Shown: positions 16,903 to 17,327, numbered from the stretch's first letter. The stretch is 32,000 bases of DNA from an uncultured Methanoregulaceae archaeon (GCA_963705255.1 OY970061.1:2160778-2192777), one strand, 5' to 3'. The notes: generated from the sequence alone by a model not told the origin. Program-made: numbers and translations.

Positions 16903-17327
16903 TTTCCCTCGCAACACGATGACTCTTCTTTGTCCCCCCCGCAGCTGCATTCCCCGCTGTCCATGTCCTTTCCCCGCAGGGCCGCGCTTATCATCGCCCA
17001 GGCACACCCGACCCCGCTCTGTACGGTAATTGCCTGAACGGGACAGTTTAAAGCGCAGGCGCCGCACTCCATGCAAGAGGCAGGACGGGCGAGATCGACA
17101 TGGTTATATCCCTCGGTATAAACTGCGTGCGGGCAGACCTGAAGGCAGCGTTTGCAGTTGATGCACCGGTCTGGATCAAGTTTCAGCGTGGTCTCCCTAT
17201 AGGAGTCGAAGAATCCTGCCGGATTCTTCTCCCCGTCGAGGTTCTGAGAAACCTTTCCGGAGTCGGAGAACCCTGATGGCTTGTTCATCTCACCGGGGTT
17301 TTGAGGAACCTTTCCGGAATTGGGCAT
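16899..17327 (-). CDS. hgcB: mercury methylation ferredoxin HgcB with an unusual ~40-aa N-terminal extension
   Basis: Two 4Fe-4S motifs (CINCKRCLQVCP, CMECGACALNCP), then GVGCAWAMI and the C-terminal vicinal Cys pair (SSCCEGK) typical of HgcB. It sits directly after hgcA with a TGATG overlap. Confidence 0.85.
   Translation of the reverse strand: MPNSGKVPQNPGEMNKPSGFSDSGKVSQNLDGEKNPAGFFDSYRETTLKLDPDRCINCKRCLQVCPHAVYTEGYNHVDLARPASCMECGACALNCPVQAITVQSGVGCAWAMISAALRGKDMDSGECSCGGDKEESSCCEGK
17203..17231 (+). repeat. copy of the AGTCGAAGAA..TTCTTCTCC palindromic element inside the hgcB 5' extension
   Basis: agtcgaagaatcc-tgcc-ggattcttctcc, compared with 5542-5568 agtcgaagaacc-tgac-ggttcttctcc and 30072-30098 agtcgaagaacc-cgtt-ggttcttctcc. 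Confidence 0.7.

Follow-up and report, generated by a model that had tools for sequence, protein, structure and literature searches.

The stretch of DNA analysed here, 32,000 nt from an uncultured Methanoregulaceae archaeon (GCA_963705255.1, OY970061.1:2160778-2192777) and called the window below, carries hgcA and hgcB on its minus strand (Table 1). The hgcB product, whose homologues number 592, many of them named "mercury methylation ferredoxin HgcB [Methanoregula sp.]", is like a typical HgcB in having two CxxCxxCxxxCP [4Fe-4S] motifs (CINCKRCLQVCP and CMECGACALNCP), the Cys columns of which are invariant in the homologue alignment A1, in its C-terminal pair of vicinal cysteines (...EESSCCEGK), and in being encoded directly after hgcA and coupled to it. 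It is unlike a typical HgcB (~95 aa in Pseudodesulfovibrio mercurii ND132; ~105-113 aa in Methanomicrobia that lack the modules described below) at the N-terminus, where the first Cys motif begins at residue 55, against residue 17 in module-less orthologues, and the window protein thus has 38 extra residues, close to the 40 or so estimated in an earlier note on this sequence. In the literature, no description was found of an HgcB N-terminal extension or of the repeats reported here; the sole "N-terminal extension" paper retrieved concerns a selenocysteine extension of HgcA.

The hgcA gene directly upstream carries the cap-helix motif N(V/I)WCA(A/G)GK as GINVWCAAGKGTFG, and its stop codon overlaps the hgcB ATG as TGATG, in a G(G/A)GTGATCTGATG junction common to module-bearing and module-less orthologues. 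Compared with an intact 367-aa orthologue, the window hgcA has two 1-nt deletions, at ~18407 and ~17944, both in G runs; the intact 367-aa HgcA encoded on a syntenic contig (L161) matches PF03599. Isolated 1-nt deletions in homopolymer runs, relative to L161 (93% identical), also occur inside otherwise conserved genes at 24072 (trpD), 20664 (trpA), 14574, 13755 and 12557, and as a result hgcA (with two frameshifts), trpD and trpA are each divided among separate ORFs. Such a pattern looks more like homopolymer under-calling in long reads than like a set of pseudogenes; if the hgcA deletions are real, hgcA would be inactive in the source organism. Relative to L161, 24 nt (8 residues, EGSCCGPG) of the Cys-rich HgcB tail are absent at 16931-16944, leaving one CC pair (SSCCEGK). 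At its other end, the hgcB stop codon overlaps the ATG of a low-molecular-weight phosphatase/ArsC-type gene (ATGA at 16899-16902; MTEKTRVLFICTANAARSQ...), and since these stop/start overlaps follow in series, hgcA, hgcB and arsC look translationally coupled; the same gene order is found in L161, L164 and L168.

Table 1. Features of the hgcAB locus and of the hairpin family in the window.
Feature	Position	Strand	Description
hgcA	17327..18428	minus	cap helix GINVWCAAGKG and transmembrane domain
hgcB start region	17325..17338	minus	SD-like GGGGTGATC 17330-17338; hgcA TGA 17327-17329; hgcB ATG 17325-17327
hgcB CDS	16899..17327	minus	142 aa; 38-residue modular extension, two-[4Fe-4S] ferredoxin core, Cys-rich tail
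Module A unit 1 (SGKVPQNPGEMNKPSGFSD)	17259..17315	minus	degenerate copy, hairpin decayed; fold z +0.33
Module A unit 2 (SGKVSQNLDGEKNPAGFFD)	17202..17258	minus	both hairpins; nhmmer module-A profile E=4.5e-18
Hairpin hp-a, AGGTTT-CTCA-GAACCT	17239..17254	minus	weak 6-bp stem, one G.U pair
Hairpin hp-b, GAAGAATCC-GGCA-GGATTCTTC	17208..17229	minus	perfect 9-bp stem, flanks GA...GA(CTCC)
Palindrome pattern sites	5543-5567, 17205-17231, 29918-29945, 30074-30098	minus, minus, plus, minus	pattern search of window
Extragenic member GGAGAAGAACC-GTCA-GGTTCTTCGAC	5540..5570	minus	in array 5430-5640; CM R1 E=4.2e-6, untrained
Two adjacent extragenic members	29736..29781	minus	GAACTC-GTCA-GAGTTCTTCGAC and GAGAAGACC-GCA-GGTCTTCGAT
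Extragenic member GAGAAGATTTAC-GAA-GTAAATCTTCGACTCC	29915..29948	plus	CM R1 E=9e-4, untrained
Extragenic member GGAGAAGAACC-AACG-GGTTCTTCGACTC	30071..30101	minus	in array 29725-30140; CM R1 E=1.5e-3, untrained

The extension is built, as had been proposed, from two tandem 57-nt units that match at 43 of 57 positions (75%; binomial P ~2e-15). Tandem Repeats Finder did not report this repeat in the window even at a minimum score of 30, because its score falls under the threshold. Only unit 2 retains an intact hairpin, the perfect 9-bp palindrome GAGAAGAATCC-GGCA-GGATTCTTCGAC to which the earlier note had drawn attention (hp-b; -18.3 kcal/mol, z -4.81; 48.9 bits with the covariance model R1 introduced below); the neighbouring hp-a is not significant when folded alone (-4.6 kcal/mol, z -0.2), and the decayed unit 1 still gives a match to R1 at 17259-17291 (E=1.7e-3). 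Since the whole 126-nt extension recurs with 2 substitutions in L161, an independent short-read assembly that is syntenic with the window at 93% identity over 19.3 kb, it is not an assembly artefact. The window gave no matches to Rfam 15 at the gathering threshold or in a tRNA scan; a generic hairpin-cluster scan was uninformative, and Smith-Waterman comparison of whole units with the window gave marginal scores beyond the palindrome. A reading of GAAGAACC as a Kt-7-like K-turn was rejected, the opposite arm being fully Watson-Crick complementary.

Comparison of HgcB orthologues, which the earlier note had proposed as one check, turns this into a question of presence, absence and number: orthologues carry 0-3 modules, and those that are extended keep the palindrome. 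Among the 121 closest HgcB proteins, 76 have no extension and start MFDSY, 22 carry one module, 7 carry two and 2 carry three, with a short partial extension in the other 14. Nearly all module-less Methanomicrobia orthologues read ...GGTGATCTG-ATG-TTY-GAY-TCN-TAY, that is, M(F/L/P)(D/N)SY right at the hgcA stop, and they include Methanoregula, Methanosarcina, Methanolobus, Methanospirillum and others; the named module-bearing proteins are all Methanoregula. There are two module types, A of 57 nt (19 codons; example SGKVQQNLDGEKNPSGFFD) and B of ~63 nt (60-66 nt, ~21 codons; example FRRTERSEVRGGEGRHQPAFD), which occur as A, B, AA, AB, BA and AAB, with one chimeric unit in L002. The 24 modules read as DNA from 14 genes, obtained via exact protein look-ups (15 of type A, the chimeric unit included, and 9 of type B), are without exception stop-free multiples of 3; they lie always between the ATG and FDSY and always in frame, and every one closes with TTC-GAY and then T(C/T)C, which is the sequence of the ancestral hgcB start. 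Type A reads AGGTTC-ATCA-GAACCT and then GAAGAATCC-(G/A)TCA-GGATTCTTC, and in type B a GAAGAACT...AGTTCGAGGA hairpin precedes GAAGRG-NNNN-(A/G)TCA-N'N'N'N'-CYCTTC, with upper stems in the type-B hairpin that vary by genome and yet stay paired (GGAGGC/GCCTGC, AGAGGC/GCCTCT, GGGTC/GACGC). The tandem units, their length in multiples of 3 and a copy number that is polymorphic from 0 to 3 among close relatives are the features of a coding minisatellite.

When orthologues are clustered by their ferredoxin cores (81 residues), module content is patchy among near-identical cores: one tight cluster holds A, B, AAB and AAB, and another holds none, A and AB. Near-identical cores with different architectures imply repeated gain and loss. 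No in-frame ATG, GTG or TTG exists at the ancestral FDSY position in module-bearing genes, and for that reason the true HgcB start cannot lie downstream of the repeats, an outcome that the earlier note had allowed for. As to annotation, the closest core relative of the window HgcB (P0010, an NCBI Methanoregula sp. protein of 107 aa) has its annotated start at METTL (METTLKLDPDRC), downstream of FDSY; its extension may be missing, frameshifted or wrongly annotated.

The palindrome is not confined to hgcB. A search for GAGAAGA-N(8-20)-TCTTCGAC finds it 4 times in the window, against 0 expected from 100 shuffles, and each of the window's four TTCGACTC sites forms the 3' foot of a GAAGA hairpin. 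The earlier note had placed the same palindrome at 5542 and 30072; both sites are real, but they are not identical to the hgcB copy, from which they stand one compensated base pair apart (GAAGAACC/GGTTCTTC vs GAAGAATCC/GGATTCTTC). In total the window holds five extragenic copies in two noncoding blocks, ~5430-5640 and ~29725-30140, which are dense arrays of adjacent hairpins (fold z -4.99 and -5.10); the second sits between convergent ORFs. The copy at 29915-29948 is followed by CTAT, like hgcB ...TTCGACTCCTAT, so that one extragenic copy runs on as ...TTCGACTCC(C)TAT and resembles hgcB. Outside the GAAGA hairpin, the similarity of whole modules to the extragenic copies is weak (nhmmer E 0.003-0.6). 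Array 5430-5640 may lie at the edge of a foreign island, since ~2000-6000 is AT-rich and none of its ORFs (2324-3079, 3015-3491, 3564-4535, 5889-6383 and 6106-6984) matches a Pfam family. The surroundings of the arrays yielded no transposase, RAYT or IS200/IS605 gene, the adjacent ORFs having no Pfam match, and a mobility mechanism is thus unsupported; a scan of viral contigs for the palindrome found nothing.

Family membership was assessed with a covariance model (R1) trained on eleven hgcB A-type hairpins and two extragenic copies and run over 663 kb. From six other genomes it retrieves the type-B hairpins of hgcB (E 1.7e-5 to 3e-2), and it also picks up extragenic copies outside its training set (Table 1). 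In the family alignment A7, pairing stands at 95% and both sides have changed in 21 cells, where shuffles give 4.2 +/- 1.7 (0/500), although A7 was fitted to the covariance model and these covariation controls are not probabilities. Under the covariance model, then, a single family takes in the hairpins of hgcB, those of type B in orthologues and those between genes. Its consensus has a foot and flanks of the form GA-GAAGA...TCTTC-GAC(TC), an upper stem that varies with compensation, and a loop that is usually (G/A)TCA; GA before the stem and GA(C) after it on the same strand give it a polarity, which in hgcB is always that of the sense strand. Across 840 kb of Methanomicrobia loci, hairpins with a GAAGA foot outnumber every other hairpin class, and extragenic copies turn up in other Methanoregula MAGs (L001 at 3673; L009 at 11403 and 12660; L169 at 7416-7566), about 10 being seen from 10-kb flanks. 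A 38-nt hairpin element (TCATTCGAAGAAGTGCTGYGCACTTCTTCTCTTCCTCG) is present in two of these MAGs (L169 7416-7566 and L009 11397-11430), and in L169 it is arrayed as three tandem units of 64 nt that separate a gene for an ion channel from a DUF169 gene. Matches to R1 in ArsR-type regulator genes by hgcAB (L020 4715-4753, L166 1787-1825 and L018 5230-5268; E 0.01-0.2) were rejected as false positives, because a conserved coding motif, EEKSRVYHALSDP, mimics the hairpin model. A plain MAFFT alignment of the unequal stems (A3) misaligned their 5' arms, and the covariance model was used instead.

The sequence constraint within the modules sits on the stems and not on the peptide. Codon-position entropy (positions 1/2/3) in the ferredoxin core is 0.30/0.31/1.06, the classic signature of protein-level selection, of which the unpaired parts of module A (0.64/0.73/0.86) show almost none, and in the hp-b stem it is 0.25/0.24/0.44, with synonymous sites conserved too (AAT and GGA appear although AAC or GGN would be protein-equivalent). 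Pairing is kept at 93.7% in hp-b and 76.5% in hp-a (helix 1) of module A (alignment A2), with both sides changed in 5 pairs of the latter, and at 87% in the module B alignment, where pair 41-56 is AU in 5 sequences and GC in 4 and is never broken. The loop falls in a different codon phase in A and in B, so the hairpin does not track the reading frame, and both types nevertheless finish in frame at TTC GAC. These stems, with their compensatory inner changes, point to a REP-like hairpin family that colonised the hgcA-hgcB junction and is translated there. The earlier suggestion that a repeat element had been taken into coding sequence is supported by the single covariance family, together with the presence, absence and copy-number variation of the modules in orthologues. 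Wobble pairs show no strand asymmetry that would separate structure at the DNA level from structure at the RNA level, and there is no sense-strand excess of G.U.

What, then, maintains these hairpins inside hgcB? The extension may have been selected as a feature of the protein, such as a docking tail or flexible tether for HgcB, with the palindrome a by-product of its repeat origin. The ORF is kept in every variant, GFFD/xFD motifs recur at module ends, and extended forms are annotated as HgcB by NCBI; but the near-even variation across codon positions in the unpaired parts, the unrelated peptides encoded by A and B, the freedom with which copy number and order vary, the lack of any extension in most relatives, and the want of predicted structure make this a very unlikely account. 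In the AlphaFold model, residues 1-48 have pLDDT ~31 and no secondary structure, and since the whole model is poor (pLDDT 42) the disorder of the tail is weakly supported by it; the extension is probably translated as a hydrophilic, disordered N-terminal tail. The least probable of the explanations weighed here is a purely local coding minisatellite, arisen by replication slippage at hgcB, its intergenic likeness being coincidental or hgcB-derived. The tandem units are indeed bounded by a direct repeat, TTCGAC(TCC), one extragenic copy has the hgcB-like continuation noted above, and a search of the 45-aa extension peptide against 1.84 billion representative proteins gave no true matches in other families (two matches to giant repeat proteins were judged spurious). 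Against this, extragenic members with different upper stems stand at unrelated loci in several MAGs, two otherwise unrelated module types share the hairpin foot only, and module-less genes have no hairpin from which slippage could be seeded.

Another candidate is a role in the mRNA. The earlier note had suggested that a stable hairpin might gate hgcB translation, and that idea finds no support: the intact hairpin is found 99-120 nt past the hgcB ATG, the predicted unpaired probability from SD to ATG is 0.32 with modules (14 genes) and 0.36 without them (15 genes; Mann-Whitney p = 0.18), so that no difference in predicted access to the ribosome-binding site is seen between the two groups, and the 166-nt 5' region folds only modestly better than shuffles (z -2.0). 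More broadly, the hairpins could be functional elements of the hgcAB mRNA that protect the hgcA 3' end from decay, pause ribosomes or adjust the HgcA:HgcB ratio, and because hgcA and hgcB overlap and leave no intercistronic space, the dispensable 5' end of hgcB would be the only room for such a hairpin. Intercistronic REPs play stabilising and ratio-setting roles in E. coli operons, and by analogy a REP-like role in mRNA stability or processing is possible. Conservation of the stems extends to all three codon positions and shows in compensatory changes, the hairpins are stable (-18 to -24 kcal/mol), and GA-stem-GA is always on the mRNA strand in hgcB. There is also a predicted 12-bp stem, with two G.U pairs, between the hgcA 3' end including the SD (17334-17345) and unit 1 (17288-17299; AACCCCGGTGAGA), seen in the window/L161 lineage and in no other. 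That lineage-specificity tells against an mRNA function, however, as do the 76 of 121 close relatives without any module, the unchanged SD and start accessibility, the position of the hairpins 40-120 nt into the ORF and so past the initiation footprint, the modest regional fold score and the missing sense-strand G.U excess, and on balance we consider it unlikely.

The explanation that we favour, and regard as probable without holding it firmly, is that a small, Methanoregula-specific hairpin repeat has become incorporated, in frame, into the opening codons of hgcB. The shared family, the modularity, the copy-number variation, the in-frame maintenance and the stem-centred constraint are observations; the route of acquisition and the neutrality of the modules we infer. 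The repeat's normal place is in extragenic arrays. A 9-nt sequence is common to the element's 3' end (TCTTCGACTCC) and to the codons with which hgcB ancestrally began (ATG TTC GAC TCC TAY, MFDSY), and recombination, template switching or slippage there probably brought modules in and raised their number, while the same direct repeats would permit their precise loss by recombination; gain and loss of this kind would leave close relatives with 0, 1, 2 or 3 modules in varied order. A MITE would have terminal inverted repeats, a target-site duplication and kinship with an autonomous IS; here the 9-nt direct repeat TTCGACTCC flanks the modules and also belongs to the extragenic element, and no parent IS was seen. 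The 3' end of hgcA contains the SD sequence, and module-bearing genes keep the SD-TGATG junction unchanged. With hgcB coupled to hgcA and no start codon left at the old position, only stop-free inserts in multiples of 3 would survive, out-of-frame versions presumably being removed by selection for HgcB. Our best estimate is that the hairpin in hgcAB is a tolerated passenger, selfish or neutral, although the conservation of its stems could also reflect an hgcAB mRNA function rather than selfish persistence. In a more speculative extension of that thought, which strikes us as quite unlikely, the modules would be a hypervariable, contingency-like cassette whose number and type of units tune hgcA mRNA stability or the HgcA:HgcB ratio, the element being a genus-specific, single-strand hairpin of GA-stem-GA polarity that enters the hgcA-hgcB junction by copying itself via homology to the hgcB start; if so, mercury-methylation capacity would differ between otherwise near-identical Methanoregula strains.

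The captured-repeat reading has precedents in bacteria. Palindromic elements of Rickettsia are described in one account as short palindromic repeats that occur between genes and in frame in an essential ORF (PMC10969869), and the present family resembles them in lying both inside an ORF and between genes, with the ORF preserved and a peptide segment added that does not destroy the protein. It differs in the size of its units, 57-63 nt against ~100-150 bp, in that in-frame copies are seen in hgcB only and not in several unrelated genes, in that these copies are always at one site (codon 2-5), tandem and variable in number, and in that no conserved peptide is shared with other proteins; since the extension peptide has no true matches elsewhere, in-frame capture may be unique to hgcB, unlike that of a freely transposing element. 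REP/BIME palindromes, which according to one source carry GTAG or CGTC as a conserved tag at one end (PMC3733652), are likewise imperfect hairpins of 20-35 nt whose foot is conserved, whose stems vary with compensation and whose conserved flanks are asymmetric, clustered in extragenic arrays in both orientations and often 3' of genes. Those are bacterial, however, with GTAG/CGTC, whereas the present family has an archaeal host, flanks of GA...GAC(TC) and a place within coding sequence, and no RAYT was found near the window arrays. In-frame VNTRs share with hgcB a unit length that is a multiple of three, bounding by direct repeats and a copy number that varies among close strains, but here a unit consists of two hairpins and comes in two unrelated types, the family is also extragenic, and the constraint is on pairing. 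The palindromic repeats with coding potential of M. jannaschii are a further near analogue.

A REP-like family in a methanogenic archaeon, inserted in frame in an essential ORF and now a variable-number cassette there, adds to a phenomenon whose clearest earlier case is Rickettsia. It has practical sides as well. The N-terminus of HgcB, and with it the length of the protein, varies by 19-59 residues among Methanoregula, a major group of methylators in wetland and peat, and should the hairpins influence how hgcAB is expressed, module content could mark methylation potential at the level of strains. The amplicon in wide use for hgcAB, which reaches from the cap helix of hgcA to the CMECGA motif in hgcB, would span the modules, giving a size polymorphism of 57-180 bp and possible artefacts in alignment or HMM trimming. 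Elsewhere in the window, a DUF333-family gene contains a 161-nt direct repeat (19440-19600 and 19629-19789; 88% identical, spacing 189 nt), an internal domain duplication that is visible in L161 too.
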